The notes below the pieces were generated by a model. It worked only from the letters and a program-made list of their open reading frames with translations, was not told the DNA's origin and made no database searches. A DNA stretch of 24,000 bases from Coriobacteriales bacterium. GTDB taxonomy: Bacteria; Actinomycetota; Coriobacteriia; Coriobacteriales; UBA8131. Shown in pieces: positions 1,798 through 23,510 of this stretch; the stretch's first letter is position 1; each line of letters starts with the position of its first letter. The position numbers and the translations under genes were made by a program. The stretch lies in contig JAISPK010000016.1 in the NCBI GenBank assembly GCA_031274985.1, forward strand, positions 222 to 24,221, in the 5' to 3' direction.

Positions 1798-2463
1798 ATG
1801 GCAGCTCACATCCTGGTTGTTGAAGACGACGAGAACATCGCTCGCATGATCGAGGCAACGCTGACCATTGGAGGCTACTCGTCAAAGATCTGCGGTGACG
1901 GCCTGCAGGCAGTGGGTGAGATAAACTCCGGCCAATACGATCTGGTGCTTCTGGACATCATGCTGCCAAAGATGGACGGGTTTCAGGTCTTTGAAAGTAA
2001 GGGTGACAACACGCCGGTTATCTTCCTCACCGCCATGGGCGACGTGCCCAACAAGGTCAGAGGACTCAGGATGGGCGCGGAAGACTACATCGTTAAGCCC
2101 TTTGAGGCAGTTGAGCTTTTGGCTCGCATCGAGGTGGCCCTCAGACGCACCCACCGGGAAAACACCACCCTCAGCTATCAGGAGATCCTCATCGAAACCG
2201 ACAAGCATGAGGTAACCCTCAATGGCAAGCCGGTCATGCTCACCCCCAAGGAGTTTGACCTTCTGGTGTTTTTTGTGAGTAATATCGACATTGCCCTGAC
2301 GCGTGAGCATCTACTCTCCCAGGTCTGGGGCTATAGCTTTAGCGGCGAGACCCGTACCGTTGATACCCATGTTCAGCAACTGCGCAAAAAACTCATCTTG
2401 CACGATGCGCTGGTCACCATCCCGCGGCTCGGCTACCGGCTCGAAAGCCGCAGGAATCTTTGA
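1798..2463 (+). CDS. OmpR/PhoB-family response regulator
   Basis: It has a receiver domain (ILVVEDDENI...DLVLLDIMLPKMDG...VKPF) and a winged-helix C-terminus (LTPKEFDLL...VDTHVQQLRKKL...GYRL). Confidence 0.9.
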   Translation: MAAHILVVEDDENIARMIEATLTIGGYSSKICGDGLQAVGEINSGQYDLVLLDIMLPKMDGFQVFESKGDNTPVIFLTAMGDVPNKVRGLRMGAEDYIVKPFEAVELLARIEVALRRTHRENTTLSYQEILIETDKHEVTLNGKPVMLTPKEFDLLVFFVSNIDIALTREHLLSQVWGYSFSGETRTVDTHVQQLRKKLILHDALVTIPRLGYRLESRRNL

Positions 2464-6581: not shown

Positions 6582-7085
6582 CTAGGCACTGACTTTTAAC
6601 AGGCCGACTGCTTCAACCAGCAGGTCATCGAATTCTTTGCGAGCAAAGAGCTTGAGTGATTCCTCGCTGAGTTGCCCCTCTTTGTGTTCATACCTGAGCT
6701 TTTCTTTTTCCATCAGGGCGCTTTTTATCTTTTCGGTACTGATGATGGCGGCGTAGCGCTTTGTTTCAAACTCCCAGAACCGGTCCTGGCCAAATTCGCT
6801 GACTTTTTCGTTGAAGACTGCCGAGCCCTCCATGCTGCTTTTGAATTTTGCTATGCGCTCATGCACCTCCTGCGGCAGCGCAACCACCCCTTTGATCTCT
6901 CCTAAACAAAACACTGCCCTCAATTGAACGATCTGGGTAATGATGGTTTCTCTCGCGGGCGGGGTGATGTCTTCGGTTCCCTGCAGCGCTAAGATCAGAT
7001 TGTGCCTGAAATGCTCGTAGTCAATCTCTGCCTGCGAAACTTCTACCCCGTCTATGGTGAGATGAATATCAGTGCTCATGATCAC
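6582..7085 (-). CDS. Hypothetical acidic cytoplasmic protein (167 aa), overlapping the nosF stop
   Basis: It is a clean ORF with no signal peptide or TM segment and no motif I recognise. It overlaps nosF by 17 nt and ends 6 nt before the next gene. Confidence 0.55.
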   Translation of the reverse strand: MIMSTDIHLTIDGVEVSQAEIDYEHFRHNLILALQGTEDITPPARETIITQIVQLRAVFCLGEIKGVVALPQEVHERIAKFKSSMEGSAVFNEKVSEFGQDRFWEFETKRYAAIISTEKIKSALMEKEKLRYEHKEGQLSEESLKLFARKEFDDLLVEAVGLLKVSA

Positions 7086-7992
7086 ACCCGCCTTTTTGCT
7101 GATAGATTGAGTGATAGATATCTTCGAGGGTTATCTCTAGTATCTCCATGTCCCCCAGCTGCTCAAAGGAGCTGATCTTATCGATGACCTCCAGCTTGTT
7201 TTCGTAGGAACACGATACAACCTGCCAGCCTTTTTCGCTGGTGATTGGATAATCGAGCCTAGCCTTGAGCTCGTCTGCACTCACCTCCGGCTCAAAGAAA
7301 GCCTTGACCCTGACCTTGTTTGCCCCGCCCCTCTTGAGCTCTTTGACGCTGCCGAGGGCGATGAGGTCGCCCTCCCGCATGATGCCAACGCGATCAACCA
7401 GCTCTTCCACTTCGCTCAAGATGTGCGAGGTAAAGATGATCGTCTTGCCGCTCTCGTTGAGCTGATTGATGATTTTTTTGCTCTTGATTACCCAGAGGGG
7501 ATCCAGGCCGGAGGTGGGCTCATCGAGTATCAGCAGCGGTGAGTCCGGCAGAAGCGCGATGGCAAGGCCGAGCCTCTGGGTCATTCCCTTTGAAAAGCTG
7601 CCGACCTTTTGCTTGCCAAGTTCTGAGAGCTCTACCAGTTTGAGCAGCTCATCTACCCTGCTGTCAGGAAGCTTTTGCAGCCGGGCAAAGAAGCGCAGCG
7701 TCTCTGAGGCGCTCAAATGAGGAAACAGCGCCATGGTCTCAGGCATGTAGGAGAACTGCTTTTTGACCTCTTTTTGAAGGGGAGCGACCTCCTGCCCGTT
7801 GATTTTCATGCACCCGGCGCTGGCTTGCAGCAGACCCACGAGCATCTTGATCAGGGTTGTTTTGCCTGCCCCGTTATGACCGAGGAGGGCAAAGATCTCG
7901 CCCCGCTCGATATTGAGCGACACGTTTTTGACCACGTCTTTTTTGCCGTAGGTCTTGGTTAGGCAGGATATCTCAACGATAGGCAACGTCAC
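7069..7992 (-). CDS. nosF: ABC transporter ATP-binding protein, NosF-like
   Basis: Walker A is GHNGAGKTT, the signature-like motif is FSKGMTQRLGLA, Walker B is LLILDEPTSGLD and the H-loop is FTSHIL. The GTG start overlaps the nosY stop (GTGA). The call also rests on its context within the nos cluster. Confidence 0.8.
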   Translation of the reverse strand: MTLPIVEISCLTKTYGKKDVVKNVSLNIERGEIFALLGHNGAGKTTLIKMLVGLLQASAGCMKINGQEVAPLQKEVKKQFSYMPETMALFPHLSASETLRFFARLQKLPDSRVDELLKLVELSELGKQKVGSFSKGMTQRLGLAIALLPDSPLLILDEPTSGLDPLWVIKSKKIINQLNESGKTIIFTSHILSEVEELVDRVGIMREGDLIALGSVKELKRGGANKVRVKAFFEPEVSADELKARLDYPITSEKGWQVVSCSYENKLEVIDKISSFEQLGDMEILEITLEDIYHSIYQQKGGCDHEH

Positions 7993-8825
7993 TTGTGTAC
8001 GCTCCTTTTAAAGAAGAATACCGACAGTACTAACGGTGCGATGATCCAGAAAACAATCCCCGCCAGCATCAAAAGCTCGCTCGAAACATTGGTGATCATT
8101 CTGGTGAGCTCGATGAGGCTCGGGCCAAAGATCGTCTCTCCGCCAAGGCTCACAATTGCCAGGATCCTTACCGCGTCCGCCGGGTTGAGCAGGATCGTGC
8201 TCACCAGAAAAACGGCCATGGACGTACCGCTGAACAGATTTGCTGCCGCCATGACCAGCAGGTCATAGACAAGGATGAAAAAGACCCAGACTATCGCACT
8301 GACGATGAGCGCGGTGATCCGCTTTTTTACGAGCACCGAAACCAGCAGGGATATGCTCAAAAACGCCAGAGCGAGCAGGATGGTAAGACCAACGAAAATG
8401 AGGTAGGCCTGTGCGTCAACCGCTGACACGTTAAAGGCAACGACCATTCCCATGAGGCCAAAGCCCACAACGATGGTAACGATGAGCGCGGCAGCTATCC
8501 CCAGATACTTGCCGAGGATCAGCTCAAGGGCGCTGATTGGCTTTGACAGCATCAAATCCATCGTGCCCAGCTCTCTCTCGCTTGAGATTGAGGTGCCACC
8601 CAGCAAAAGCGTGATCATCGGAATGAGCAGCAAAACCAGATTGAGCAGGCTCGCGGTGGTTTTATTGAAGCTCTCAAAGCCCATGGTGGTGCTGTTGAAG
8701 ATTCCCAGATAGATAATCGAAAAAGACAGGGCGATAAAGACCGCCAGAAAGGCATAGAACCACCGGTTGCGCAGAGAGTCCAGTATCTCTTTGCCTATCA
8801 GTATTTTGATCGTGTGCAGATTCAT
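7989..8825 (-). CDS. nosY: ABC-2-type permease, NosY-like
   Basis: The 278-aa protein is highly hydrophobic with about 6 TM segments. It lies between nosL and nosF and is translationally coupled to nosF. Confidence 0.75.
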   Translation of the reverse strand: MNLHTIKILIGKEILDSLRNRWFYAFLAVFIALSFSIIYLGIFNSTTMGFESFNKTTASLLNLVLLLIPMITLLLGGTSISSERELGTMDLMLSKPISALELILGKYLGIAAALIVTIVVGFGLMGMVVAFNVSAVDAQAYLIFVGLTILLALAFLSISLLVSVLVKKRITALIVSAIVWVFFILVYDLLVMAAANLFSGTSMAVFLVSTILLNPADAVRILAIVSLGGETIFGPSLIELTRMITNVSSELLMLAGIVFWIIAPLVLSVFFFKRSVHK

Positions 8826-8828
8826 TAG

Positions 8829-8860
8829 CCTGTCGCTGTCTCTATCGCTGTCTCTATCGC
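8829..8860. repeat. 12-bp tandem repeat (cgctgtctctat, about 2.6 copies) in the nosL-nosY spacer
   Basis: Read directly from the sequence: ctgt cgctgtctctat cgctgtctctat cgcg. Confidence 0.8.
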
Positions 8861-8874
8861 GGTTTTACAACTGC

Positions 8875-9381
8875 TTAATGCAGCATCATCTCGCTGCCCA
8901 TGGGGCCATTATCGTCAGTAGACATCATCTCTCTACGCATCTTCATGGTGTCCATAACATCTGCCCAGCTCACCTCTTCGCCGGTGTACTCCGCGAGGAA
9001 GGCATCCAGGCTGCTCTTGTCTGCAAAGGCAACGAATCCTGAATTCATCGGGGTCATCACTTTTTCTGATGAGGCAAAAAGTGCCGTTTCGGTGCTGACC
9101 CACTCCAGTGAATAGAAGTCCCTGACGTAGCAGGTTCCCTCGAGGGCTATACCCTTTACGATATAGACTGCCATACAGGCGATGTCGTCGAATTTGTCCA
9201 CGGTTTTGGCATCGACAACAATCTGAGCAGCAAACTGATTGTCCATGACCGTCATGGAGCAGTTAGCGCAGACGTCTACCTTCTCGTCTATGGGTTTGGG
9301 CGCAAGACCCGCTCCTCCCACGCAGCCTGTCAGAGCCACCACAAACAGCAACACCGCCACAAAAGAAATACGTTTTTTCAT
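8875..9381 (-). CDS. nosL: NosL copper-chaperone-type lipoprotein
   Basis: It has a lipoprotein signal (VVALTGC). The segment DVCANCSMTVMD parallels the NosL CxxCxM...D motif. The later YVRD and GFVAFADKSSLDAFLAEYTG segments resemble NosL family conservation. Confidence 0.8.
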   Translation of the reverse strand: MKKRISFVAVLLFVVALTGCVGGAGLAPKPIDEKVDVCANCSMTVMDNQFAAQIVVDAKTVDKFDDIACMAVYIVKGIALEGTCYVRDFYSLEWVSTETALFASSEKVMTPMNSGFVAFADKSSLDAFLAEYTGEEVSWADVMDTMKMRREMMSTDDNGPMGSEMMLH

Positions 9382-9437
9382 AGTAACTTCCCTTTCTTCA
9401 CTCGCCTTGATACCACTTTATACCAGTAACAATTCTC

Positions 9438-10826
9438 TCACTTCTTAAAACTTCTCGACACGGTTCTCATAAAACCAACGCCCAGCAAAACGGCACACAG
9501 CGACACCGCAAAGGTAACTACGCCCGCTGCGGTGCTCTTTTGCGAGACGATCTTCTCCAGCAGGTCCGTGTTTCCGTCGTGCATCAAAGGAAACTCATCA
9601 ACGATCTCTGCCCGTTTGACAACCGGAAACATCGCGTCAACCGTTTTGAGCAGATTGGCGGTGGGACTCTCGGAAAACAGCCTCATAAAGGGAAACTCAT
9701 ACATCGAGTACTCAAAGGCCGAGCCGGAGCGATAGGCGGTATCCCCTACCCCGTCTTTTTGGGTGTCAATACCGGAGTAATCGCTCCAATAGTTTCCTCT
9801 GCCCTCGTGCGACCAAAAATCATTGGTTCTGATCTCATTGACCGAGACCTGCTGAAAATTGTCGAGAAAACTGTTGTCGGTAAAAACGTTTTCCCAGTTG
9901 CTCCCCAGCATCTCCATGCCAATGTCGTTTTGCATCATCGTGTTGTTTTTGAAATACAATCGGTTAGACAGGTCTGAGTACACCCCGATGTTGTTTTTAA
10001 AGAACAGGTTGTTCTCAATGACCCCGTCGGATACCAGCTGAAAAAACAGGCCAAAGCAGCGCGGCCCCGTGTTCTCGGCAAACACGTTGTGGTCCAAGGT
10101 TATGTTCAGTGAAAACATTATCGCTGCTCCTGAAACATTGTGGCCTAAATAGTTGTACCGAAAGACATTGTCGTCCGAAGACATGTAGTGCAGACCGTAG
10201 CGCACAAAGGTAACGCAGCTATTGGAAACCGTTGTTTTGTCGCATTGATCAAAATAAATCCCGTCCCGGGTAGCCGTTATCACATTGCCGTCAGCAAGAT
10301 TATTTCTCGTGTTAAAAAAATGGATCCCGTTTCCTCGTTTGGAGAATTGCTCCTCTTCAAACCCGGTAATGCTGTTGTCTTTAAGCAAAACGTTTTCGCA
10401 CTCGCTCACGTAAATGCCAAAGAGCACGTCTTGGAGCTTGTTGTCGATAACCTCAGAGTTGCTGGCTCCTTCTATCAGGATTCCCGCATCGTTATCCAGG
10501 TAATTACGGCCACTCGAGCAGATGGTAAAGCCTTTGATAACGACCCTGGCATCGCGCGCCTCAACAACGTGCCTGGTGTAGCTGCCATTAATGACCGCCT
10601 GATGCCTCTCGACCGACTCAAGGGTGACCGCTTTATTGATGAGCAGGTTCTCTGTGTATACGCCCGGGGCTACCCTGATGACATCCCCGTCCTGTGCGGC
10701 ATCGAGCGCAGAGCTAATCGTCGCAAACGGCTTGTCCTGACCAACTTCCAGCTCTGCAGCAGACGCTGAGGCGGCAGGTATGAGAATGAACAGCAGGGCA
10801 AATATCAGGCACGTTTTCTTGCCCAC
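9438..10826 (-). CDS. nosD: NosD, parallel beta-helix copper-centre maturation protein, with a C-terminal TM anchor
   Basis: The signal peptide ends ASASA/AE. There are repeated beta-helix turns (DNSITG, GNGIHFF, GNVITATRDGIYF, VRYGLHYMSSDDNVFRYN, NVSGAAIMFS, NNIGVYSD). The C-terminus has the hydrophobic segment VVTFAVSLCAVLLGVGF. Confidence 0.85.
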   Translation of the reverse strand: MGKKTCLIFALLFILIPAASASAAELEVGQDKPFATISSALDAAQDGDVIRVAPGVYTENLLINKAVTLESVERHQAVINGSYTRHVVEARDARVVIKGFTICSSGRNYLDNDAGILIEGASNSEVIDNKLQDVLFGIYVSECENVLLKDNSITGFEEEQFSKRGNGIHFFNTRNNLADGNVITATRDGIYFDQCDKTTVSNSCVTFVRYGLHYMSSDDNVFRYNYLGHNVSGAAIMFSLNITLDHNVFAENTGPRCFGLFFQLVSDGVIENNLFFKNNIGVYSDLSNRLYFKNNTMMQNDIGMEMLGSNWENVFTDNSFLDNFQQVSVNEIRTNDFWSHEGRGNYWSDYSGIDTQKDGVGDTAYRSGSAFEYSMYEFPFMRLFSESPTANLLKTVDAMFPVVKRAEIVDEFPLMHDGNTDLLEKIVSQKSTAAGVVTFAVSLCAVLLGVGFMRTVSRSFKK

Positions 10827-11488
10827 AGCTTATCACCCCAAGTGCCGACAAACACAAAGACTGCACTTGCAACGAGGAAGAAAAATCCTATGCGAAACGA
10901 GCTGTAGGTGGTGAAATTGGCCAGATGGTTTTCGCCGATCATCGGCGGTACAAAAGGTGGAACGATGATAGGCGCATCAGGAGCCAGGTTTGACCCAAAG
11001 GTCTGGAGCCAGTGATACATGTCATAGAGTCCTACTGCGGCACCAACGACAAACAGGGCGCAGGCAATGTAGGCAAGTTTTCGCGACCCGAGGAGCGCTA
11101 CGGCAACAATGAGCGCTGCCATACCCCAGATAATGTACTTAATATACTGGAGCTCCGGAAAGCCTGCTTCGCTGATTTTGTCCATGCCGATGTAGTGATT
11201 CAAAGCATTGAGGTTTACGATGTCATACTCGCCCTGACCTGCCAGTTTATCGGGGTACACGATGATTGACAGACCCTCCGGATACTGCGGTGCTAACAGA
11301 TCCAGCCCCCACCAGGGCAAAAAGGACGACACGAGCAACAGGATTGCTCCCCCTATCAAGAGGCCTCTGCTCGCAGTTGGAAACTTCTTCTTGTGCCTGG
11401 GCTGAACTTTTTTCTTCCCGGGATCTGACGATTCCTGCGCCTGCGCGCTGCCGCCTTGAGCTTCGTTGGAAAGTGATACTGCACTCAT
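10805..11488 (-). CDS. Integral membrane protein directly downstream of nosZ (NosB-like by position and topology)
   Basis: The 227-aa protein has a basic cytoplasmic N-terminus and about 4 TM segments. It overlaps nosD by 22 nt. Clade II nos clusters typically carry the membrane protein nosB at this position. The assignment is positional only. Confidence 0.5.
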   Translation of the reverse strand: MSAVSLSNEAQGGSAQAQESSDPGKKKVQPRHKKKFPTASRGLLIGGAILLLVSSFLPWWGLDLLAPQYPEGLSIIVYPDKLAGQGEYDIVNLNALNHYIGMDKISEAGFPELQYIKYIIWGMAALIVAVALLGSRKLAYIACALFVVGAAVGLYDMYHWLQTFGSNLAPDAPIIVPPFVPPMIGENHLANFTTYSSFRIGFFFLVASAVFVFVGTWGDKLWARKRA

Positions 11489-11582: not shown

Positions 11583-13418
11583 TTACTTAGGCTTAACTAA
11601 GAGATAGCCCTGCATCTCCTGATGGAGTGCCGAACAGAAGTTAGAGCAAAAGTACGGAAATACTCCGGCTTTGTTGGCCGTGAACTTAACCGTACTGGTT
11701 TGCCCGGGTTGTACCTCAAAGTTAACATTGTGGAGATTGATAGCAAACCCGTGGGTAATATCCTGATCGAGGTCGATGTTGGTGAGGTGGATGGTGACGT
11801 TGTCGCCTTGGTTGACCTGAACCACGTCGGGCAGGAAGCGCGAACGTACGGCAAGGGCGTACACGGTTACGTCGCTGCCATTTCTCTCGATTCTTGCCTC
11901 TTCTTCACTCCAGATAGAATCGGGATTGCTCGGATCCTTAGGAATGACGAAGATCGTCTTGATCTTGTCGGCTTTGATCGTCTGAGCATAGTGGGGCTCA
12001 GGATCGATAGGCGCCTCGTTGATGACGGCCATCTTGTCGCTGGCAAGGTCGACGAGCTGCATGTTCTCAGGATGCGAGGGGCCCACCGGCAGGTGACGGT
12101 CTGTTGAGAGCTTGTTTAAAGCAACGAGATATTTGCCGTCGGGGCTGACGGTGTCGCCCTCAGCGGCGGTGCTGTGTCCCGGGCTGTACTGAACCGCAAC
12201 GGTGTCGACAACTTTCCACTCGCCTATCTTCCACTTGGCAACGGTGCTGTCGACAAACAGGGTCGTATAGGCCCAACCATCAAGACCAAACTGGGTGTGC
12301 AGGGGCCCGAGACCCGCTTCGACCTCGGCCTCAAGTACGGACTCATAGTTCAAAATCGGAATGCCGCGCTTGGTTTCCAGATAGTCTTTTGCGTCAATAG
12401 CCTTGAGCATTTTCTCAAAGCTGAATACGCTGCAGATTGGAGCCAGCTTGCCGTTGGTGATGAAGTATTTGCCGTCAGGGGTCACGTCAACGCCGTGCGG
12501 GCTTTTGGCCGCCGGAATTGCGTACACAACGCCCTCGGTTTTTTCGGGATCAATCACTTTTTGGCCGTTGATCTCGGTATACTTGCCGTCAGCTACAGCC
12601 TGTTCAGCGGCCTTCCAGTTGATGCACATACAATAGTCGGTCTCGTTTTTGGAGGCATTGACCTCAAGCAGCGTGCTGGCTTCTTCGGAGTTGTAGGTTG
12701 ACATAAACGCCCAGCCTTCCGAGGGACCCTTGCCCGCGTCTGAGAGATCGTAGTTCCAGGGCGGAAGCTTGATCTGCCAGGCCGGCGTCATAAAACCGGT
12801 GGCCTGATCAATAGCAATGGCCTGCATGACGCCATCGTACTTAGCGCTGTATTGATCCAGTTCGTAGTAGGCACCGTCCATCGGAACCGAGAATCTCGTA
12901 CCCATCATAAAGTACTCTGTGTTGGGGGTGACAAATACAGCGGAGTGGGGTCCCATGAGATTGGGGATCGGTCCGACGATCTGCTTGGTCTGGAAGGTTG
13001 TGAGGTCAATCATCGCGGCACGGTTGTTTGCGTTGTCGTTGGCAAACAGGAACCGTCCGTCGTAATCGCCCTTTGTTTCGCTTAGTGAAGGGTGGTGCAG
13101 GTCTCCCCAGGTAAAGTCACCCATCATCGCTTTGGTGTGCTCATCAAATCCGTAGCCTGTTGCTGAGTCTTGAGAAAACACCGGAATGGTACGAATGCGC
13201 CTGAGTGACGGAACTCCTATGACAAATATCTGCCCGGAGTGACCACCTGAGGCAAACATGTAGTACTCGTCGTGTTCTCCGGGTGGCACAAAGAGTCTGA
13301 CGTCACCTGCAGCAACGCTTGGTGTTCCAGCTGGCGTGCATCCTGCCAGCCCTGCCGCCGTAGCAGCAGCAATGGTCCCGCCTCCCATAATGAATGATCT
13401 TCTCGACAGTTCTTTCAT
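11583..13418 (-). CDS. nosZ: Nitrous-oxide reductase NosZ (Tat signal plus lipobox; clade II-type DxHH motif)
   Basis: The CuA site is HGF...CSNFCSALHQEM. Seven candidate CuZ histidines are present (GDLHHPS, GPHSAVF, SPHGVDVTPDG, GPLHTQF, SPGHST, EPHYAQ). The N-terminus is MKELSRRSFIMGGGTIAAATAAGLAGC. Confidence 0.95.
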   Translation of the reverse strand: MKELSRRSFIMGGGTIAAATAAGLAGCTPAGTPSVAAGDVRLFVPPGEHDEYYMFASGGHSGQIFVIGVPSLRRIRTIPVFSQDSATGYGFDEHTKAMMGDFTWGDLHHPSLSETKGDYDGRFLFANDNANNRAAMIDLTTFQTKQIVGPIPNLMGPHSAVFVTPNTEYFMMGTRFSVPMDGAYYELDQYSAKYDGVMQAIAIDQATGFMTPAWQIKLPPWNYDLSDAGKGPSEGWAFMSTYNSEEASTLLEVNASKNETDYCMCINWKAAEQAVADGKYTEINGQKVIDPEKTEGVVYAIPAAKSPHGVDVTPDGKYFITNGKLAPICSVFSFEKMLKAIDAKDYLETKRGIPILNYESVLEAEVEAGLGPLHTQFGLDGWAYTTLFVDSTVAKWKIGEWKVVDTVAVQYSPGHSTAAEGDTVSPDGKYLVALNKLSTDRHLPVGPSHPENMQLVDLASDKMAVINEAPIDPEPHYAQTIKADKIKTIFVIPKDPSNPDSIWSEEEARIERNGSDVTVYALAVRSRFLPDVVQVNQGDNVTIHLTNIDLDQDITHGFAINLHNVNFEVQPGQTSTVKFTANKAGVFPYFCSNFCSALHQEMQGYLLVKPK

Positions 13419-13444
13419 AGTTTGTCCCTCTCTCTTAATACTCT

Positions 13445-13909
13445 CTAACTGTTATAACCTTTCAAAATTTCGATTACCTCTTGCTTCTCAGTATCTGAAA
13501 GTGGTGAGTTGCCCAGGATCACTGACATGGTCCCTTCCGGCTTGTCCATGAACTCTTCGAGCGTGAGCCCAAAGCGCTTATTAACCTCCGTGTAGGCACC
13601 TGCCAGATCAGGCCCGGTTCCGTTGCCCTTTAAGCCCAACGGGCTTATGTCGTGGCATTTCATACAGTTGCGCTTAACCAGGATGTTGGTTTCTTCGCTG
13701 TTTGTTGCGTTGTTGTCGTTGTTGGCGTTGTTGTCGTTGTCGTTTGCCGCCTGTTGAGTGTTTGCCTGCGCGTCGTCAGTACTGTTGGAGGCCGCGCAGC
13801 CGGCTATCTGGCCTACTGCTCCCAGACTCAAAATAACCACGACAATAAAAAGTAGGCCTTTGTGTAAGAGATTCTTCAAGTTTACCCTCCTTAGGTTTGT
13901 AGGAATCAT
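13445..13909 (-). CDS. Monohaem c-type cytochrome lipoprotein upstream of nosZ (NosC-like)
   Basis: It has a single CxxCH (CMKCHD), a lipobox (GQIAGC) and an Asn/Asp-rich linker. I prefer the ATG at 13909, which is preceded by GGAAAGGAACGGG. The ORF track start at 13981 (GTG) would add 24 residues ahead of the signal peptide. Confidence 0.75.
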   Translation of the reverse strand: MIPTNLRRVNLKNLLHKGLLFIVVVILSLGAVGQIAGCAASNSTDDAQANTQQAANDNDNNANNDNNATNSEETNILVKRNCMKCHDISPLGLKGNGTGPDLAGAYTEVNKRFGLTLEEFMDKPEGTMSVILGNSPLSDTEKQEVIEILKGYNS

Positions 13910-14053
13910 CCCGTTCCTTTCCGCTTTGCAGTTTTGCTGTTCTGCGCGTCCGGCAAAGCCGGATGTTGCAGAATTCACCACTGTTTCTCTCCCTGGTTCC
14001 CGCGCTTTGAGATAGTCTCTGCTTTCTTTAAAGCACAGGAGTACACAGTCATA

Positions 14054-14083
14054 ATTCTATCGCCGACGGTAACAGTAAAGCAA
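14054..14083 (-). promoter_or_regulatory. Candidate nos operon promoter (TTGCTT-N18-TAGAAT on the minus strand)
   Basis: The minus strand reads TTGCTTTACTGTTACCGTCGGCGATAGAAT. The -35 region overlaps TTTAC/GTTAC copies of the repeat motif seen elsewhere in this spacer. Confidence 0.35.
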
Positions 14084-14134
14084 CGACTCCGCCCGAATAA
14101 TGAATTAACTTAGTCTTATAAACATTAAAAAAGA

Positions 14135-14164
14135 ATTACATTTACGGCATTTACCTCGTTTTAC
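14135..14164 (+). promoter_or_regulatory. Phased direct repeats of TTTAC (candidate OmpR-family response-regulator binding array)
   Basis: ATTAC lies at 14135 and TTTAC at 14141, 14150 and 14160. The last three are spaced 9 and 10 bp apart. The array sits in the divergent nos / two-component-system intergenic region. Confidence 0.4.
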
Positions 14165-14218
14165 CCTGTTTTCTCTGGTAGTCTTGTTGCATCATCTAAG
14201 AGTGAACCTTGCGGGTCA

Positions 14219-14235
14219 GTAAACGCGAAGTAAAC
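14219..14235 (+). promoter_or_regulatory. Two GTAAAC copies (reverse complement of GTTTAC) 11 bp apart, embedded among three GGGTCAGT repeats
   Basis: GTAAAC lies at 14219 and 14230. GGGTCAGT lies at 14213, 14240 and 14256. All are just upstream of the kinase start. Confidence 0.35.
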
Positions 14236-14267
14236 ACGAGGGTCAGTCAGTAAGAGGGTCAGTGAAC

Positions 14268-16046
14268 ATGAAGGTTAAAGAGCCCAAGCCTTTCAAATTC
14301 AGTATCCGACTTAAGCTTGCTGTTTTTGTTGGGGCGCTTATTGCTGCGTTGATGACCGGGGACGCTCTGTGGACTGCCTCACTCCAACAACAACAATCAG
14401 AATTCGAAGCGCACGAAAAGGCCGAGGTGCTCGCGGGAGAAATGCGCGCGGTGTGGGATTTTCTCGACATAAACCAAAACATCGTCAATCGCACGCTGGA
14501 CGGGGCGATTCGCTCAAAAACGCTGGTATGCGTTGTTGCAGCAAAATCGATTAGCTACCTCTTTGCGGAGGACACCGACTACACGATTCGCTTTGTCAAT
14601 CAAACACCGCGCGAAGTTGTGGGCACGCCTGACGCCTTTGAAGAGCGGGCTTTTGCCGCGTTCATAGCTGACGGCAAGCTGGAGGCCTATTCTGAAGTCG
14701 AGATAAACGAGCAGGGCGAGCGCGTCTTTCGCTATGCCGAACCCCTGTATGTCACCACGATGTGCCTGGAGTGCCACGGGGACCCGGCAGGAGAACTCGA
14801 CCAGTACGGCTATGAAAAAGAGGGCATGCACATCGGGGATATCGGAGGGGCGCTCTCTATCATTGAGCCCATGAATATCTACCGGGAAGGCATGCAGCGC
14901 AGCGTTATGCAGCAGTTGATCATGGTGTTGATTATGTTTGTCCTTGCCAGTATAGGCATCTATTATGCGGTAAACCGGCTGGTCTTGCGCCCCATCGAAA
15001 AGCTCGAGCATGCTGCAAAGAAAATCGGTGGCGGAGAATTCAAATACACGCTCAACATCAAGAATTTTGGTGGCTCAGACGAAATCACCGCTTTTGTTGA
15101 GGACTTTGACAAAATGGCCCAGCGGCTCAAGCATCTCTACCTCGACCTCGAGAGCGAGGTGGCGCTCCGCACCGAAGAGCTCTACGAGCTCAATAAGCTG
15201 CTTATTCAACAGAAGACGGAGCTCAAGGAAGCGCTTGACCGCTTAAACGAAGAAACCGCCTATAAGAGCGAGTTCTTTGCCATTATGAGCCACGAGCTCC
15301 GAACGCCTCTTACCTCGGTGCTTGCCTTTGCCCGCATCCTTCAGGCTTCGGACACCCTTGACGACAAGACCTCTCATTCGGTTGAGGAGATTGAGGTCAA
15401 TGCAACGCTTCTCCTCAATATGGTCAATAACATGTTGACCCTTGCAAAAGCCGAGGCGCTCAAGAACGAACTCCTGGTTGAGCCGGTTGATTTTGTTGAC
15501 CTGATTGGGTTTGTGAAGGATTCGCTTGAGCCAATAGCGCGCAACAAGGGCATCGACTTTACCGCAAAAACCAACCTGGACGTGCCGGTGACCATGGCAG
15601 ACTGGGAAAAGCTCCGGCGCATCGTAGAAAACCTCGTTGACAATGCCATCAAATACACACAAACGGGCGGCGCCATCAGCATCAGCGTGCATTATGAGTG
15701 TGCTGAGGCGGCGGTACCGGGCTCTGGCGAGAGTTCTGACGAAAACGGCGCTTCTGAGTGTCCGTGCAAAGACGGCTTTGTGGTGATAGTGGTAGCCGAC
15801 GATGGCATGGGAATTGCCGCAGAAGACCAGGAGACGATCTTTGATCGCTACAAACAGGGAATCCAGTCTCCTGACCGCCGCTATCGAGGCACCGGACTCG
15901 GCCTGGCGGTAGTTAAGGAGCTCACTGAGCTGCATGGTGGGACGGTCTCTTTTGAATCCACCATTAATAAAGGGAGTACCTTTACGGTGCGCATCCCCTA
16001 TATCCGGGTAGATACCGAGGGCTATTATGAAGATACTACTGGTTGA
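14268..16046 (+). CDS. Sensor histidine kinase with extracytoplasmic c-haem (CxxCH) DUF3365/Tll0287-like domain, HAMP, HisKA, HATPase_c
   Basis: Between TM1 (LAVFVGALIAALMTG) and TM2 (LIMVLIMFVLASIGIYYAV) lies FRYAEPLYVTTMCLECHGDPAG. The H-box is MSHELRTPLTSVLAF, the N-box is NLVDNAIKYT, and the G-boxes are DDGMGI and GTGLGLAV. The ATG at 14268 has AAGAGGG 9 nt upstream. The GTG at 14262 is an alternative start. Confidence 0.85.
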   Translation: MKVKEPKPFKFSIRLKLAVFVGALIAALMTGDALWTASLQQQQSEFEAHEKAEVLAGEMRAVWDFLDINQNIVNRTLDGAIRSKTLVCVVAAKSISYLFAEDTDYTIRFVNQTPREVVGTPDAFEERAFAAFIADGKLEAYSEVEINEQGERVFRYAEPLYVTTMCLECHGDPAGELDQYGYEKEGMHIGDIGGALSIIEPMNIYREGMQRSVMQQLIMVLIMFVLASIGIYYAVNRLVLRPIEKLEHAAKKIGGGEFKYTLNIKNFGGSDEITAFVEDFDKMAQRLKHLYLDLESEVALRTEELYELNKLLIQQKTELKEALDRLNEETAYKSEFFAIMSHELRTPLTSVLAFARILQASDTLDDKTSHSVEEIEVNATLLLNMVNNMLTLAKAEALKNELLVEPVDFVDLIGFVKDSLEPIARNKGIDFTAKTNLDVPVTMADWEKLRRIVENLVDNAIKYTQTGGAISISVHYECAEAAVPGSGESSDENGASECPCKDGFVVIVVADDGMGIAAEDQETIFDRYKQGIQSPDRRYRGTGLGLAVVKELTELHGGTVSFESTINKGSTFTVRIPYIRVDTEGYYEDTTG

Positions 16047-16725
16047 CGACGAAGCGAGCATCCGAAGGCTCGTAGCCAGCATGATTACCGATGCAGGCTA
16101 TGAATTTTCCTATGCAGAAGATGGCATCAAGGCGCTTTCTGTCGCAGAAAAGAGCAAGCCGGATCTCATCATCCTGGATGTGATGATGCCCCAAATGGAC
16201 GGATTTACCACGTGCCGCAAGTTGCGCGAAAAAGGCATCACTGCGCCCATCATCTTTCTCTCGGCAAAAGGTGACATCGTTGACAAGGGCATAGGTTTTG
16301 AGGCCGGCGGCGATGACTATCTGGTAAAACCTTTTGACCCCAGAGAGTTGCTCATGCACATTGAGGCGCATCTCCGGCGGGCTCAGATGGCACCGCACAC
16401 CAAGGGGGAGCAGGCTGCTGTGCTGCGTATTGGCAGATTTATGCTGGACAGCGGCCGGTTTCGCGCTGCTAAAGACAACCAGCAGCTTATGCTCACCGTC
16501 AAAGAATTCAGGATTCTCTATACCCTTGCCAGCAACTATGGCATGGTAATCTCAAGAGAACAGCTTGTCGAGGCCGTATGGGGGAGAGAATTTGTTGGCG
16601 AGACCTCGAGCATCACCGTTTTTATCAAGAAACTGAGAGAAAAGATAGAGGACGACCCGTCGGAGCCTCAGTTCATTCAAACGGTCTGGGGTCTTGGCTA
16701 TCGGTTTGAGCCGGGTGCACCGTGA
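16027..16725 (+). CDS. OmpR/PhoB-family response regulator
   Basis: The receiver is MKILLVDDEASIRR...DLIILDVMMPQMDG...VKPF and the winged helix is LTVKEFRILYTL...ITVFIKKLREKI...WGLGYRF. It overlaps the kinase gene by 20 nt. Confidence 0.9.
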   Translation: MKILLVDDEASIRRLVASMITDAGYEFSYAEDGIKALSVAEKSKPDLIILDVMMPQMDGFTTCRKLREKGITAPIIFLSAKGDIVDKGIGFEAGGDDYLVKPFDPRELLMHIEAHLRRAQMAPHTKGEQAAVLRIGRFMLDSGRFRAAKDNQQLMLTVKEFRILYTLASNYGMVISREQLVEAVWGREFVGETSSITVFIKKLREKIEDDPSEPQFIQTVWGLGYRFEPGAP

Positions 16726-16769: not shown

Positions 16770-18122
16770 TCAGCCCAGATAATTATCTCTTTGCCACGTG
16801 CCGCTTAAGACCTCACCTGAGGCGTAGGTAAAAGTGCCCTGGCCGGAGCGGTAACCGCCCAGGAAGTTGCCGGTGTAACTCCCGTAGTAGTTTCCTGCAA
16901 TATCCCTATAGGTCTGTGTGCCAAAGCCGGTTCTGGCGCCGTTGAGCCAGGCGCCCGTATACGATGACCCGTTGGTAAAGTAAATAGTTCCCTGGCCTTG
17001 CTGTATACCGTCGACCCAATCGCCGGTATACGACCAGCCTGCTGCGCTGATGTAGCTGCCTGAGCCGTTCTCGAGGTTGTTGTTCCATCCGCCGCTGTAG
17101 ACCGAGCCGTCCTGGTAACGGTAGGTTCCCTGACCACTGCGCTGCCCGGCGCTCCATTCTCCTTCGTAGACCCAGCCCAGCGCACTGGTGAGCGTGCCCC
17201 ATCCCTCTTCTTTTCCTTTGGCCCACTGGCCCGTATACACCGACCCGTCTGAATAGGTAAGGGTGCCCGTACCACTTCTGCTGCCTTTTTCAAAGGAGCC
17301 TTCGTACGTCCAGCCCTCCGTAGAAACAAAGACGCCGGTTCCATGGATCTCGTCATTAAAAAACTCGCCCGTGTAAACCGAGCCGTCTTTGTAGGTCAAC
17401 ACGCCGCTGCCCTGGCGGATACCTCTCTGCCAGTCTCCGATATAGGCCGGGAGAGCGCTCGACCCCGGCGTAAAGGTTCCCCGGCCGTCGGGCATATCAT
17501 TTTTGAATGCACCCGTATAAACCGAGCCGTCCCTATAGGCAAGGGTCCCCTGACCCTGCCTGACTCCTCCGACAAAATTACCTTCGTAGACCCAGCCCTC
17601 TTTGCTGGTCAACACGCCAAAGCCGTCCCAAAGTCCGTTTTTCCAGCTTCCTTTGTAGACGGAGCCTCCCTGATAATAAAAGGATCCCTGCCCCTGCATC
17701 TCGTCTTCAGCCCATTGGCCTTCGTATCTTTCGCCGTTGGGCAAGGTATAGGTTCCTCGTCCTTCTCGCTTGCCTTCGGAAAAGGTGCCTTGATAAATCG
17801 GTCCTTCGGCATAACGCAGGATACCCTGGCCGTCATAGAGACCGTCTTTGTAGTTACCAAAGTAGAGATCGCTCGCAAAGAATTGAAAATAGGTAAAAAT
17901 GCAAAGGAACACGAGGGAGACCGCTGCCACTGCCGTGCAGTATATTTGGGCTTTTTTGCGAGTTTTTAGAGGGGCTCTTTCAAGGAGAGAGCCTTTTCTG
18001 ATGAGAACTACACCCGTTATTGCGATGCAGAGCACTATTATTCCGAGGGCCACAATAAAAGTAGCCAAGACAGATCCTCCCGTCTGTTTCGTGTCCCCCA
18101 GAAACAGGCACCAATCTACCAT
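16770..18122 (-). CDS. MORN-repeat membrane protein
   Basis: Two N-terminal TM segments are followed by about 15-16 tandem 23-aa units of the form YxGxWxxGxxxGxG (for example YEGQWAEDEMQGQG and YTGQWAKGKEEGWG). Confidence 0.85.
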   Translation of the reverse strand: MVDWCLFLGDTKQTGGSVLATFIVALGIIVLCIAITGVVLIRKGSLLERAPLKTRKKAQIYCTAVAAVSLVFLCIFTYFQFFASDLYFGNYKDGLYDGQGILRYAEGPIYQGTFSEGKREGRGTYTLPNGERYEGQWAEDEMQGQGSFYYQGGSVYKGSWKNGLWDGFGVLTSKEGWVYEGNFVGGVRQGQGTLAYRDGSVYTGAFKNDMPDGRGTFTPGSSALPAYIGDWQRGIRQGSGVLTYKDGSVYTGEFFNDEIHGTGVFVSTEGWTYEGSFEKGSRSGTGTLTYSDGSVYTGQWAKGKEEGWGTLTSALGWVYEGEWSAGQRSGQGTYRYQDGSVYSGGWNNNLENGSGSYISAAGWSYTGDWVDGIQQGQGTIYFTNGSSYTGAWLNGARTGFGTQTYRDIAGNYYGSYTGNFLGGYRSGQGTFTYASGEVLSGTWQRDNYLG

Positions 18123-21511: not shown

Positions 21512-22225
21512 TTAGAGCCCCAGAGCCTTCTTAAGTCCGGCGACCCTTCGCCTGGATACCGGCACTTTTTCTTCTTCGCCCGCGAGCGTCAACTGCAAGG
21601 TGCCGCCACTCACCGGGGATACCTCTTCGACGCAATCGAGGTTTACCAGATAGCGGCGATGTACCCTGAAGAAATTGTACGGCTCCAGCTTGGTCTCCAG
21701 CTGCGCCAGCGAAACGGTAGAAAGATAGCGGTCGTTGCTGGTATGGAGATACGAGTAATCATCCTTTGCCATGATATAGCGAATCTTATCGGTGGACACC
21801 AGGAGCTTTTTGCCGCCCTTTTCAACGGGTATACGCTCCATCTGTACACCTTTTGAGTTTGAGGAGAGGTGTTTTTTGACCTTGCTCAGGGCTTTTTGGA
21901 GTCGCTCGGTGGCAACCGGTTTTAAGAGATAGTCGATAGCGTTGACGTCAAAGGCTTTGACGGCATGCTCGCTGTGGGCCGTTACAAAGATCACAGCAGG
22001 TGGATACTTAAGGTGTCCCAGTGCTTCTGCAAGCTGCAAGCCGGTAGCGCCGGGCATTTGGATATCCAAAAACATCAGGTCGCCACCATGCTCTTTGAGG
22101 CGTTCGATGGCTTCTCTGATGTTGCTGGCTTCAGCAACCACCTCGACCTGTCCGGTTTCTTCTAAAAGGTAATGCAATTCGCTTCTGGCAGGAGCTTCAT
22201 CGTCAACTATTATCGCTCTGATCAT
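21512..22225 (-). CDS. LytTR-family response regulator
   Basis: The receiver is MIRAIIVDDE...DLMFLDIQMPG...LKP. The LytTR DNA-binding domain is IRYIMAKDDYSYLHT...FFRVHRRYLVNL. Confidence 0.9.
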   Translation of the reverse strand: MIRAIIVDDEAPARSELHYLLEETGQVEVVAEASNIREAIERLKEHGGDLMFLDIQMPGATGLQLAEALGHLKYPPAVIFVTAHSEHAVKAFDVNAIDYLLKPVATERLQKALSKVKKHLSSNSKGVQMERIPVEKGGKKLLVSTDKIRYIMAKDDYSYLHTSNDRYLSTVSLAQLETKLEPYNFFRVHRRYLVNLDCVEEVSPVSGGTLQLTLAGEEEKVPVSRRRVAGLKKALGL

Positions 22226-23510
22226 CCGTGACCACCTTACTTAGATTCCTTGATCCCAGGTTCAGGATTATTCTCGTTCCCACATTGACCTTAGATTGTA
22301 CCTCAAGCCCCGCGTTAATGCCAAAGAAGCCCACTAAACGCTCCGCAACATTCTTGAGTGCTACGCCGGCGTGCTCGCTATTATCTTTGTTGAGGGCCAG
22401 TTTTTGCATGGCTTCAGGCATGCCGACGCCGTTGTCCTCCACAATGATGACCACCTGCCCGTTTACGATACTTCCCCTGATGTTGATGCGCAGAGGCTCG
22501 TGCCCGCGCCGTCCGTGCGCCACGGCGTTTTCTACCAGCGGCTGGATGATAAAGGCCGGTGCCTCGATGGCCAGCAGTTCCTCGTCCACATCTACCTTGC
22601 AGATGATTGAATCGGCGCCAAAACGGGCCTTCTCAAACCCCAGATAGCGCAGCGTCTGGGTTATTTCCCAGTCGAGCGTGGCTTCTTCCATCGAGCCCTC
22701 GAGGGTCTGGCGATAAAACGTGGCAAACTCCCTGAGGAGAATGCGGGCATGGCTGGGATCGGTGCGAATCAGCGCGGCTATCGTATTGATGGTGTTATAG
22801 AGAAAATGCGGGTTTATCTGAGCCTGCAGCGCCTTGAGGTTCATCTTTGCAGCCAGGTCTCGCTGGTATTCCAACTCAGCCAAGCGCAACTGCATATCCA
22901 GCAGGCCTCCGAGCCCCTCGGCCATGGCAAGCTGATTGGCATCGATTTGCTGGGGCGACCGATAGTAAAACTTAAGAACACCCACCGGGCCGTCATGTTG
23001 CATAAGCGGTACACAGATTGCCGCGTGCATGGTCTCAAGCGTATGAGCCGGGCCTATTTCTTCGTATGAGCGAGCAATCTGAACCTTGCCCTCCTCAAGG
23101 GCCCGATAGGTGGCGGCAGTGCGGATGGGTGAGCCAATGAGGTGCGAGCTCATCTCGCGTCCAAAGTAGCCGAGGATCTTCTCCCGGTCGGTAATGGACA
23201 CCGCGCTGGCGTCGGTAGCGGGAATAAGCAGCTTGCAGACTTCCTGAGCACTCTCTTCGTTCAGGCCCTTTTGCATATGGGGCAGGGTCTGCGCCGCCAG
23301 CTTGAGTGTGCGCTCGCTTTGACGGGCGCGGAGACGATCGGGGCTGATGTTTACTTTGATCAAAAGCAGGAGCAGGCAGAACACAGCCAGAACACACAGG
23401 GCTGCAATGATGAAGTCAAGGCTGGAAAGCAGCGCAAAAACGGTGACTACCAGCAACATTGCAGTGACACCGATAATGAGCACTTCTACCAGCGAAAGAG
23501 TTCTTTTCAT
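22203..23510 (-). CDS. LytS/YehU-type sensor histidine kinase (2 TM, GAF-like, His_kinase, HATPase_c)
   Basis: It contains LKALQAQINPHFLYNTINTI, the PF06580-type H-box. The N-box is QPLVENAVAHG and the G-box is VEDNGVGM. A GAF-like segment reads ICVPLMQHDGPVGVLKFYY. It overlaps the regulator gene by 23 nt. Confidence 0.85.
   Translation of the reverse strand: MKRTLSLVEVLIIGVTAMLLVVTVFALLSSLDFIIAALCVLAVFCLLLLLIKVNISPDRLRARQSERTLKLAAQTLPHMQKGLNEESAQEVCKLLIPATDASAVSITDREKILGYFGREMSSHLIGSPIRTAATYRALEEGKVQIARSYEEIGPAHTLETMHAAICVPLMQHDGPVGVLKFYYRSPQQIDANQLAMAEGLGGLLDMQLRLAELEYQRDLAAKMNLKALQAQINPHFLYNTINTIAALIRTDPSHARILLREFATFYRQTLEGSMEEATLDWEITQTLRYLGFEKARFGADSIICKVDVDEELLAIEAPAFIIQPLVENAVAHGRRGHEPLRINIRGSIVNGQVVIIVEDNGVGMPEAMQKLALNKDNSEHAGVALKNVAERLVGFFGINAGLEVQSKVNVGTRIILNLGSRNLSKVVTDDQSDNS

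Follow-up and report, generated by a model that had tools for sequence, protein, structure and literature searches.

A haem-c sensor kinase divergent from a nos operon

The stretch of DNA analysed here (the window) comprises 24,000 nucleotides (nt) of a metagenome-assembled genome (MAG) of a Coriobacteriales bacterium (GenBank assembly GCA_031274985.1, contig JAISPK010000016.1, positions 222 to 24,221 of the forward strand), and contains an operon for nitrous oxide (N2O) respiration (nos) and, divergent from it, the genes of a two-component system whose kinase possesses an extracytoplasmic domain predicted to bind haem c. The switching of nosZ, the gene for the N2O reductase, is poorly understood in clade II N2O reducers, notably in Gram-positive and non-denitrifying ones, and bears on N2O sinks. 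The locus is a concrete and testable case, in which both kinase and regulator are defined, a candidate operator of 16 bp is present and the promoters have been predicted.

The sensor histidine kinase gene (14262–16046, plus strand) encodes 594 amino acids (aa) from a GTG start; the NCBI and JGI annotations begin at the ATG at 14268, which yields 592 aa. Its product is a 100% match to MDR2035159.1, annotated as 'DUF3365 domain-containing protein [Coriobacteriales bacterium]', and consists of a first transmembrane helix (TM1), an sCache_haem/Tll0287-like domain, a second transmembrane helix (TM2) and the HAMP, HisKA and HATPase_c domains. According to Pfam, aa 43–203 match the Tll0287-like family PF11845 over 144 of 144 profile positions (E=7.6e-27; 95 bits against a gathering score of 24.1), followed by HAMP at aa 237–290, HisKA at aa 335–399 and HATPase_c at aa 447–580. 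Hydrophobic segments are located at approximately aa 13–39 and 215–242 and the N-terminus is rich in Lys and Arg; from these two helices and the basic N-terminus it is predicted that about 175–180 aa reside outside the cell, the side of the membrane on which c-type haem has to be attached. The kinase boxes are intact (H-box SHELRTPL with H344, N box DNAIKYT, G1 box DDGMGI, G2 box GTGLGL) and are those of a HisKA-type kinase. Overlapping the kinase gene by 20 nt is the gene of a 232-aa response regulator (16027–16725, plus strand), which is assigned to the OmpR/PhoB family by its Response_reg (E=1.7e-30) and Trans_reg_C (E=2e-27) domains and by residues D7/D8, D51 and K101, all invariant in the alignment. 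Its recognition helix GETSSITVFIKKLREKIEDDPS corresponds exactly to the consensus of the orthologue group, from which orthologues deviate at zero to two positions and paralogues at more. The relatives of the kinase are found in the Eggerthellaceae (Raoultibacter, Arabiibacter, Adlercreutzia, Slackia, Eggerthella and Gordonibacter), with 52–67% identity.

Most of this layout had been predicted in an earlier interpretation of the same DNA made without database searches (the sequence-only reading). The transmembrane segments, the single CxxCH in a DUF3365-like domain, the HAMP, HisKA and ATPase domains and the overlapping OmpR-type regulator gene are all borne out by Pfam, the sequence motifs and the AlphaFold2 fold described below, and the proposed similarity to a haem-binding family and conservation of the CxxCH in relatives likewise hold. 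The kinase operon is indeed divergent from nos, with a start-to-start distance of 383–389 bp instead of the approximately 350 bp given, and the extracytoplasmic domain does lie between the two helices, but is somewhat smaller than the roughly 190 aa that had been estimated.

The sensor domain (14373–14909, plus strand; approximately aa 38–216) adopts a Cache-like fold in the AlphaFold2 model, which has a mean predicted local distance difference test score (pLDDT) of 82.2 and a predicted template modelling score (pTM) of 0.74 and displays a long N-terminal helix and a mixed alpha/beta core. Between strands 154–163 and 194–203 of this model, a short inserted helix (166–172) bears the haem-c attachment motif C168-L-E-C171-H172 (14763–14777, plus strand, within TTMCLECHGDPAG), the only CxxCH of the sensor. 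The best PDB fold match found by Foldseek is 5B82, the structure of Tll0287 from Thermosynechococcus (E=1.9e-6, probability 1.00, target-normalised template modelling score 0.68), and a profile built from 24 family members also leads to 5B82 (E=1e-12); when the sensor sequence alone was compared with PDB sequences no meaningful match emerged, so that the family profile was required. The profile alignment pairs Cys90 (14529–14531, plus strand), the predicted distal axial haem ligand, with Cys68 of Tll0287, which is reported to be a haem ligand in the structure of that protein. The CxxCH is kept in 101 of the 102 full-length representatives of the sensor family and throughout the reductase-linked clade (88 of 88 sensors), whereas Cys90 is retained by 68% of the wider representatives and by each of the 88 clade sensors, in which C168, C171, H172, R117, D124, E127 and R157 are invariant as well. 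As judged from these residues, the sensor would be an extracytoplasmic domain with a covalently bound, presumably loaded haem c that is ligated by His172 and Cys90.

In a 2026 preprint, Deshpande et al. rename the DUF3365/Tll0287-like family sCache_haem, and report that its CxxCH is 99% conserved and that the haem of Tll0287 is Cys/His-ligated (bioRxiv 10.64898/2026.02.01.703092). The stand-alone Cys/His sCache_haem proteins tested in that study behaved as redox proteins and bound nitric oxide (NO) weakly, and a TM-HAMP sCache_haem protein of P. azotoformans, in which the axial Cys is absent, bound NO tightly and did not bind O2 stably. The window kinase belongs to the sCache_haem family, because it has all the sequence and fold features of its members, and its histidine-kinase architecture is one of those listed in the preprint. 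It also exhibits the fusion of transmembrane segments, HAMP, HisKA and HATPase_c that characterizes the NO-sensing 'Cluster 2' subtype, a group further marked by slow NO dissociation and no stable O2 complex, but not the absence of the axial Cys that would leave the sixth coordination position labile, and because this residue is present it falls outside the characterised NO-binding subtype; by keeping the Cys it instead appears as a signalling sCache_haem member with redox-type ligation. With the P. azotoformans protein it has in common the extracytoplasmic single Cache fold, the position of the CxxCH in an inserted helix, the location between two transmembrane helices and the HAMP domain that follows; it differs by the presence of C90 and by its kinase output, which is not described for the former. 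With Tll0287, its top fold and profile match, and with a stand-alone sCache_haem protein of P. putida it shares the His/Cys axial signature; however, these proteins are soluble, stand-alone and of redox type, whereas the window sensor is fused to a full kinase and paired with a DNA-binding regulator. The retention of the axial Cys makes it more likely that a His/Cys haem senses redox state or a gas than that sensing is specific for N2O.

Near the haem, the window sensor carries specific substitutions at otherwise conserved positions, namely F83I, E166T and a unique M167 beside C168. Furthermore, aa 118 (14613–14615), next to the invariant R117, is Gln in all 26 non-redundant orthologues and is changed in the three orthologues that have a partner operon other than the usual one, to Glu in the window and to Leu in loci L034 and L047. 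This residue could be a specificity position or could equally reflect lineage divergence, and the substitutions F83I, E166T, M167 and Q118E are regarded as a lead only. The possibility of an altered sensor was rejected, as its deviations from the consensus are no more numerous than those in locus L013, where the partner is a molybdenum (Mo) enzyme; of all of them, only Q118 follows the change of partner. Identity of the sensor to Mo-linked orthologues is 62–73%, the same as for L013, L034, L038 and L047. The sensor being no more divergent than that of L013, nothing points to a sensor that evolved for N2O.

Genomic partners of the kinase clade

Linkage of these kinases to nos and other respiratory genes was surveyed from both sides. 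The kinase-side survey comprised 86 loci (the metagenomic or genomic surroundings of closest proteins in 6 cases, and 80 loci from a scan in which each species was represented by one genome), in which nosZ, nosD, nosL and nosY were scored within 10 kb, and the nos-side survey comprised 83 other clade II nosZ loci (1.03 Mb), which were searched with the sensor profile at E<=1e-3. None of the 86 kinase loci contained nos genes, and none of the 83 nosZ loci encoded a Tll0287-like protein. A gene of the dimethyl sulfoxide (DMSO) reductase family, in contrast, is found within 5 kb of the kinase in 76 of the 86 loci. The orthologues of the window kinase are particularly uniform in this respect: in 32 of 36 loci the kinase operon is divergent from the gene for an approximately 790-aa DMSO-reductase-family (Mo) enzyme and its iron–sulfur subunit, and the remaining orthologue loci either have another Mo enzyme downstream (two) or are cut at the contig end (two). 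Another Mo enzyme is encoded within 5 kb also in 42 of the 50 paralogue loci, most exceptions having short flanks. Hence the kinase clade, which is expanded in the Eggerthellaceae, adjoins terminal-reductase operons; at the family level it is linked to terminal reductases in general, and a family-level link to nos is refuted. On this point the sequence-only reading, which had counted its proposal of a nos regulator as failed if orthologous kinases were never linked to nos, does not stand. For the partner Mo enzyme, NCBIfam and PDB searches yielded only sub-threshold DMSO-reductase-family matches, and Little et al. give no assignment.

The expansion is most pronounced in Coassembly_mag_450, where six paralogous Tll0287-like kinases are each located near a different DMSO-reductase-family operon, and three paralogues each, likewise with a different operon of this kind beside every one, are present in Adlercreutzia sp. 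Marseille-QA1605 and Slackia equolifaciens. This contrasts with the statement that the sCache_haem domain is rare in Actinomycetota (10.64898/2026.02.01.703092).

The reductase operons next to these kinases are exchangeable. Comparison of locus L006 with L015 (Raoultibacter timonensis) revealed 94–99% DNA identity over the kinase, the regulator and the intergenic region, and a drop to approximately 57% from the first reductase codons leftward, so that the breakpoint coincides with the 5′ end of the Mo gene. In one of the two loci the Mo enzyme shows 96% identity to the reference and is accompanied by genes for an ABC transporter, a beta-propeller protein and a DUF4418 protein (type A1), whereas the Mo enzyme of the other is only about 54% identical and these additional genes are absent (type A2). 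Other Mo partners occur again in the loci of Slackia exigua and of a ruminal MAG (L034 and L047). With cassettes swapped behind a constant control region, the reductase slot is demonstrably exchangeable, and the nos operon of the window fits this pattern.

The comparison of L006 with L015 concerns positions 3007–9700 of L006. At 3156–6664 of L001, and also in L003 and L006, genes for a permease of FtsX/MacB type, an ABC ATPase, a YncE-like beta-propeller and a membrane protein with DUF4418 follow the type A1 Mo operon; the ABC transporter of this type is MacB-like, and its beta-propeller protein has a weak match, far below the threshold, to the model of the clade III lactonase-type NosZ.

The nos operon and the shared control region

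The nos block is encoded entirely on the minus strand. Its first gene (13445–13879) specifies a small, nosC-like cytochrome c lipoprotein with a CMKCH motif and the lipobox IAGC; translation likely starts at the TTG at 13879, preceded by AAGGAGGG, which corresponds to the 144 aa called in L092, a Logan assembly from a separate sequencing run. It is followed by nosZ (11583–13418), encoding a clade II Sec-dependent N2O reductase (NCBIfam TIGR04246, 872.7 bits against a cut-off of 625). The remainder of the block (6582–11488) consists of a nosB-like gene for 227 aa, nosD, nosL, nosY, nosF and a gene for 167 aa, and the Pfam families NosD, NosL, ABC-2 and ABC_tran that mark a clade II cluster are all present. 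The gene order is common to three close NosZ relatives (L009–L011), one from Schinkia (L011) and two from metagenome contigs, in which homologues of the nosC-like gene are likewise found 5′ of nosZ. The nosB-like gene, which occupies the gap between nosZ and nosD (10805–11488), has no Pfam family, and its position is also kept in L009–L011. No Pfam family was found either for the 167-aa gene following nosF (6582–7085), which is 42% identical to the post-nosF gene of L011; this counterpart has a weak match to SurA_N_3.

The nearest relatives of the window NosZ are from Bacillota (Schinkia, 74% identity; Planifilum, 68–71%), and no other NosZ named as Coriobacteriia was present among the top 120 NosZ matches. 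The gene flanking the far side of the nos block (DUF3810), on the other hand, is 56% identical to a gene from Eggerthellales. With a Bacillota-like NosZ and an Eggerthellales-like flank, the nos block resembles a foreign insert in an Eggerthellales-type chromosome. A step in GC content that would mark a recent transfer was not seen, the values ranging from 49 to 57% throughout the window. The presence of a complete clade II nos cluster in this Coriobacteriales (Eggerthellaceae-like) MAG thus probably represents horizontal gain of N2O respiration in a lineage not known for it; our literature search found no paper joining Eggerthellaceae with nosZ.

An assembly chimera at the kinase–nos junction is ruled out by L092, which is 99.9% identical over 13046–16058 and has the same arrangement (the beginning of nosZ, nosC, the intergenic region and the kinase gene), together with the Eggerthellales-like gene to the left of the nos block. 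Also ruled out was a joint arrival with nos of a second two-component system of the window (1798–4016), as its identity to the pairs adjacent to nos in Bacillota is 26–41%, which is generic.

The intergenic region contains the 16-mer ATTAAAAAAGAATTAC (14124–14139, plus strand), a candidate binding site of the response regulator. It can be interpreted as an ATTAA/ATTAC direct repeat with 11 bp between repeat starts, a spacing typical of OmpR/PhoB-family sites. At up to three mismatches it is the sole match in the window, the copy being exact, with 0.08 matches expected by chance. In 25 orthologue loci of 20 kb each, one exact copy per locus is present, invariably 5′ of the kinase gene and in the same orientation; the 16-mer was not found in the paralogue loci. 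A half-site-like block, ATTAACTT (14104–14111, plus strand), is located 20–22 bp to the left of the 16-mer, as seen in the alignment and the in-register stack; its counterpart is ATTAAGAA in most orthologues and TTAACTT in L013.

When stacked on the 16-mer, the orthologue intergenic regions align in register and without gaps. In all 24 loci a minus-strand -10 element of the form nAnAAT is located 70–73 bp to the left of the 16-mer and a plus-strand (G/C)ATAAT -10 element 37–39 bp to the right; a leftward -35 element TTGAAn/TTGCAn (3–5 of 6 matches to TTGACA) is recognizable in 20 of the 24, in 19 of these with a 17-nt spacer. In the orthologues, this sequence pattern describes two divergent core promoters approximately 145 bp apart that appear to share one upstream site. 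The window has a predicted leftward, nos-directed core promoter at 14054–14083 (minus strand), with the -35 element TTGCTT (14083–14078), an 18-nt spacer and the -10 element TAGAAT (14059–14054), from which a nos transcription start near 14047 on the minus strand is predicted. This -10 hexamer has 5 of 6 matches and lies at exactly -70 from the 16-mer, a coincidence whose chance we estimated by hand at about 0.03. The predicted rightward, kinase-directed extended -10 element (TGgTAGTCT, 14176–14184, plus strand), at +39 from the 16-mer, is weak; the corresponding plus-strand transcription start is predicted near 14191. Strict local alignment backs only the 16–24 nt block that surrounds the 16-mer, and the correspondence of the promoters is therefore one of position (register).

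Neither of the Crp/Fnr palindromes TGTGA-N6-TCACA and TTGAT-N4-ATCAA was detected at up to two mismatches in window positions 13876–14262, and no Crp/Fnr-family or NosR-like gene was present among the 20 open reading frames scanned in the window. Of the relatives, the metagenome contig L010 contains the perfect palindrome TGTGAATGACATCACA (9431–9446) 5′ of nosC and an adjacent Crp-family gene, and Schinkia (L011) the Crp/Fnr-type palindrome CGTGATTTTCATCACG at approximately 9359–9374, also 5′ of nosC. Crp/Fnr boxes in the relatives and none in the window are what a rewiring of nos control would look like. Both L010 and L011 also possess an OmpR-type regulator–kinase pair 3′ of nosF. In the leader of the window kinase, just 5′ of its start codon (14213–14273), GGGTCAGT is repeated three times (14213, 14240 and 14256), with AGTAAAC repeats between the copies, a pattern absent from the orthologue leaders.

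Proposed capture of nos by a resident control module

We consider the chances somewhat better than even that a resident reductase-control module has captured the horizontally acquired nos operon, and that it responds to a respiratory cue and not to N2O. In the orthologues, the kinase–regulator operon and the DMSO-reductase-family operon diverge from a compact bidirectional region of fixed geometry, in which two predicted core promoters flank the ATTAA-N6-ATTAC site and a second TTAA block. In the window, a clade II nos operon of Bacillota origin would fill the reductase slot behind the same control region. A change of state of the His172/Cys90 haem, either its reduction or oxidation with a switch of the thiolate ligand or the displacement of the Cys by NO or CO, might then be relayed via TM2 and HAMP to the kinase core, where H344 would serve to phosphorylate D51 of the regulator. 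The phosphorylated regulator would bind at 14104–14139 and activate its own operon as well as nos. Induction of reductases by their acceptors via neighbouring regulators, described in the Eggerthellaceae (bioRxiv 10.1101/2022.12.26.521950), provides the context for such control. Rather than N2O itself, the most likely signal is a respiratory cue of a general kind, namely redox state, O2 or NO. An N2O-specific signal is unlikely because the sensor resembles its Mo-linked orthologues as closely as that of L013 does, and because a near-identical kinase serves two different Mo enzymes. The pair is thus probably a general respiratory switch that was re-used for N2O respiration, and not a dedicated N2O sensor.

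Several points weigh against such a capture. The link between kinase and nos is a single instance, known from one MAG and one near-identical assembly. The rightward -10 element of the window is poor (3 of 6 matches) and the -35 elements are weak; under strict local alignment there is no significant similarity between the window and the orthologue intergenic regions outside the 16–24 nt block; and the leader of approximately 168 nt 5′ of nosC leaves room for an independent promoter. What the analysis shows is the identity of the domains, the conservation of the haem motif and the Cys, the genomic association statistics, the DNA element with its geometry and the cassette exchange in relatives; attachment of haem, its ligand, the signal, binding by the regulator, the starts of transcription and the activation of nos are predicted. 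Moreover, the presence of several paralogues per genome, each next to a different reductase, argues for substrate-specific sensing over a single global cue. Finally, the only biochemically characterised NO-binding signalling member of the family lacks the axial Cys (10.64898/2026.02.01.703092).

The single occurrence, the long nosC leader and the confinement of detectable similarity to one short block would all agree with an adjacency that has no regulatory meaning, nos having inserted beside an autoregulating or target-less pair and being transcribed from a promoter of its own under the control of other regulators, for instance an unlinked Crp/Fnr protein or one of the two-component systems at 1798–4016 and 21512–23510. 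The Crp/Fnr-type boxes and other two-component systems near the nos clusters of the Bacillota relatives point in the same direction. We nevertheless hold this explanation to be unlikely, because nos is situated exactly in the reductase slot, its 5-of-6 -10 hexamer is in register with 24 orthologues, a near-identical cassette swap has occurred at the same boundary in Raoultibacter-type loci, the window contains neither a Crp/Fnr palindrome (up to two mismatches) nor a Crp-family gene, and its other regulator–kinase pair resembles the Bacillota nos-adjacent pairs in a generic manner only. Still less probable, in our estimation, is that the kinase senses the substrate of its usual partner Mo reductase, which would either bind in the Cache pocket or oxidize the haem directly, and that nos is simply co-induced. 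The up to six paralogues per genome, each near a different reductase (Coassembly_mag_450), agree with this idea, as do the selective induction of Eggerthellaceae reductases by their acceptors through adjacent regulators (bioRxiv 10.1101/2022.12.26.521950) and the typical function of Cache domains in ligand binding (10.64898/2026.02.01.703092). However, kinases with 94–99% DNA identity serve two Mo enzymes whose own identity is no more than about 54%, the invariant His/Cys haem points to redox or gas chemistry, and induction of nos by an unrelated substrate would be of no obvious benefit.

The divergent position next to nos, the substitutions near the haem (F83I, E166T, M167), the change of Q118 in all three orthologues with unusual partners and the existence of a signalling sCache_haem protein that binds NO tightly but O2 not stably (10.64898/2026.02.01.703092) might suggest that a haem kinase dedicated to sensing N2O or NO has evolved for the specific regulation of N2O respiration. 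This appears quite improbable in view of the absence of any nos link in the 86 kinase loci and of the kinase in the 83 other clade II nos loci, the similarity to Mo-linked orthologues, which is the same as for L013, L034, L038 and L047, the equally many consensus deviations in Mo-linked L013, and the axial Cys, which is kept here unlike in the NO-binding example. In addition, haem proteins are not known to sense N2O. The specific N2O-sensor idea is weakened, and the nos link has been seen only once. Of the sequence-only reading, according to which the pair might control nos in response to NO, N2O or redox state, control of nos retains the backing of the conserved control region in spite of the missing linkage in orthologues, and NO or redox sensing remains plausible, NO binding having been shown for one signalling member of the family, which lacks the axial Cys kept here, whereas nothing indicates a sensor evolved for N2O. 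Regulatory capture can be extended to the whole clade only tentatively, and we regard it as rather doubtful that the His/Cys haem-c kinases of Eggerthellaceae are all portable, cassette-agnostic switches that read an extracytoplasmic redox or NO cue instead of the reductase substrate, into which the acquired nos operon was plugged, replacing its Crp/Fnr-type control.

The arrangement has parallels in several known systems. The established nos regulators are NosR and DNR/NNR in clade I and the Crp/Fnr-type NssA/B/C of Wolinella in clade II; like them, the window pair is presumed to control nosZ transcription by a respiratory cue, but a NosR-like or Crp/Fnr gene and a Crp/Fnr palindrome are absent here. 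TorS/TorR also combines a periplasm-sensing kinase with an OmpR-family regulator that activates an adjacent reductase operon via direct repeats; TorS, however, senses trimethylamine N-oxide through TorT and contains no haem. Although TorS is the best NCBIfam match of the kinase core, its score of 180 bits is far below the cut-off of 676 and reflects the shared kinase core only. In the Eggerthellaceae, transmembrane LuxR-type regulators (Dong et al. 2022) and two-component systems (10.1101/2022.12.26.521950) are found beside reductases. As in the window, a dedicated regulator adjoins the operon of a secreted terminal reductase with inducible expression; the window differs in that the regulator is a haem-c kinase with an OmpR-type partner and the target is the operon of a copper enzyme (nos), whereas in the relatives it is a Mo or flavin reductase.

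In agreement with the sequence-only reading, which knew of no characterised haem-c kinase that controls nosZ, our literature search retrieved no DUF3365/Tll0287 kinase or two-component system tied to clade II nosZ, and in the literature searched we found neither the sensor chemistry nor the clade-wide coupling to reductase cassettes in Actinomycetota nor the nos link. As the survey itself reveals, the large reductase arsenals of gut Eggerthellaceae go together with an uncharacterised clade of haem-c kinases, and one reductase cassette can take the place of another while the control module stays the same. Capture of a foreign nos operon by such a module would be a fairly unusual case, specific and open to testing. 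If confirmed, it would explain how new respiratory capacities are regulated immediately after horizontal transfer, and would provide the first regulon for the sCache_haem family. Should these kinases indeed be portable switches, the locus would also represent the first two-component, haem-based route to the control of N2O respiration, and would exemplify in nature how a foreign respiratory operon is captured by resident regulation at a reductase slot prone to recombination.

Two further two-component systems are encoded in the window, at 1798–4016 and 21512–23510. One pair consists of an OmpR-type regulator and a HAMP kinase, the other of a LytTR regulator and a GAF/His_kinase sensor, and neither is specifically related to the pairs beside Bacillota nos clusters. 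Convergent with the regulator gene, positions 16770–18122 encode a membrane-anchored protein that is composed almost entirely of MORN repeats (10 stretches, E=6e-72).

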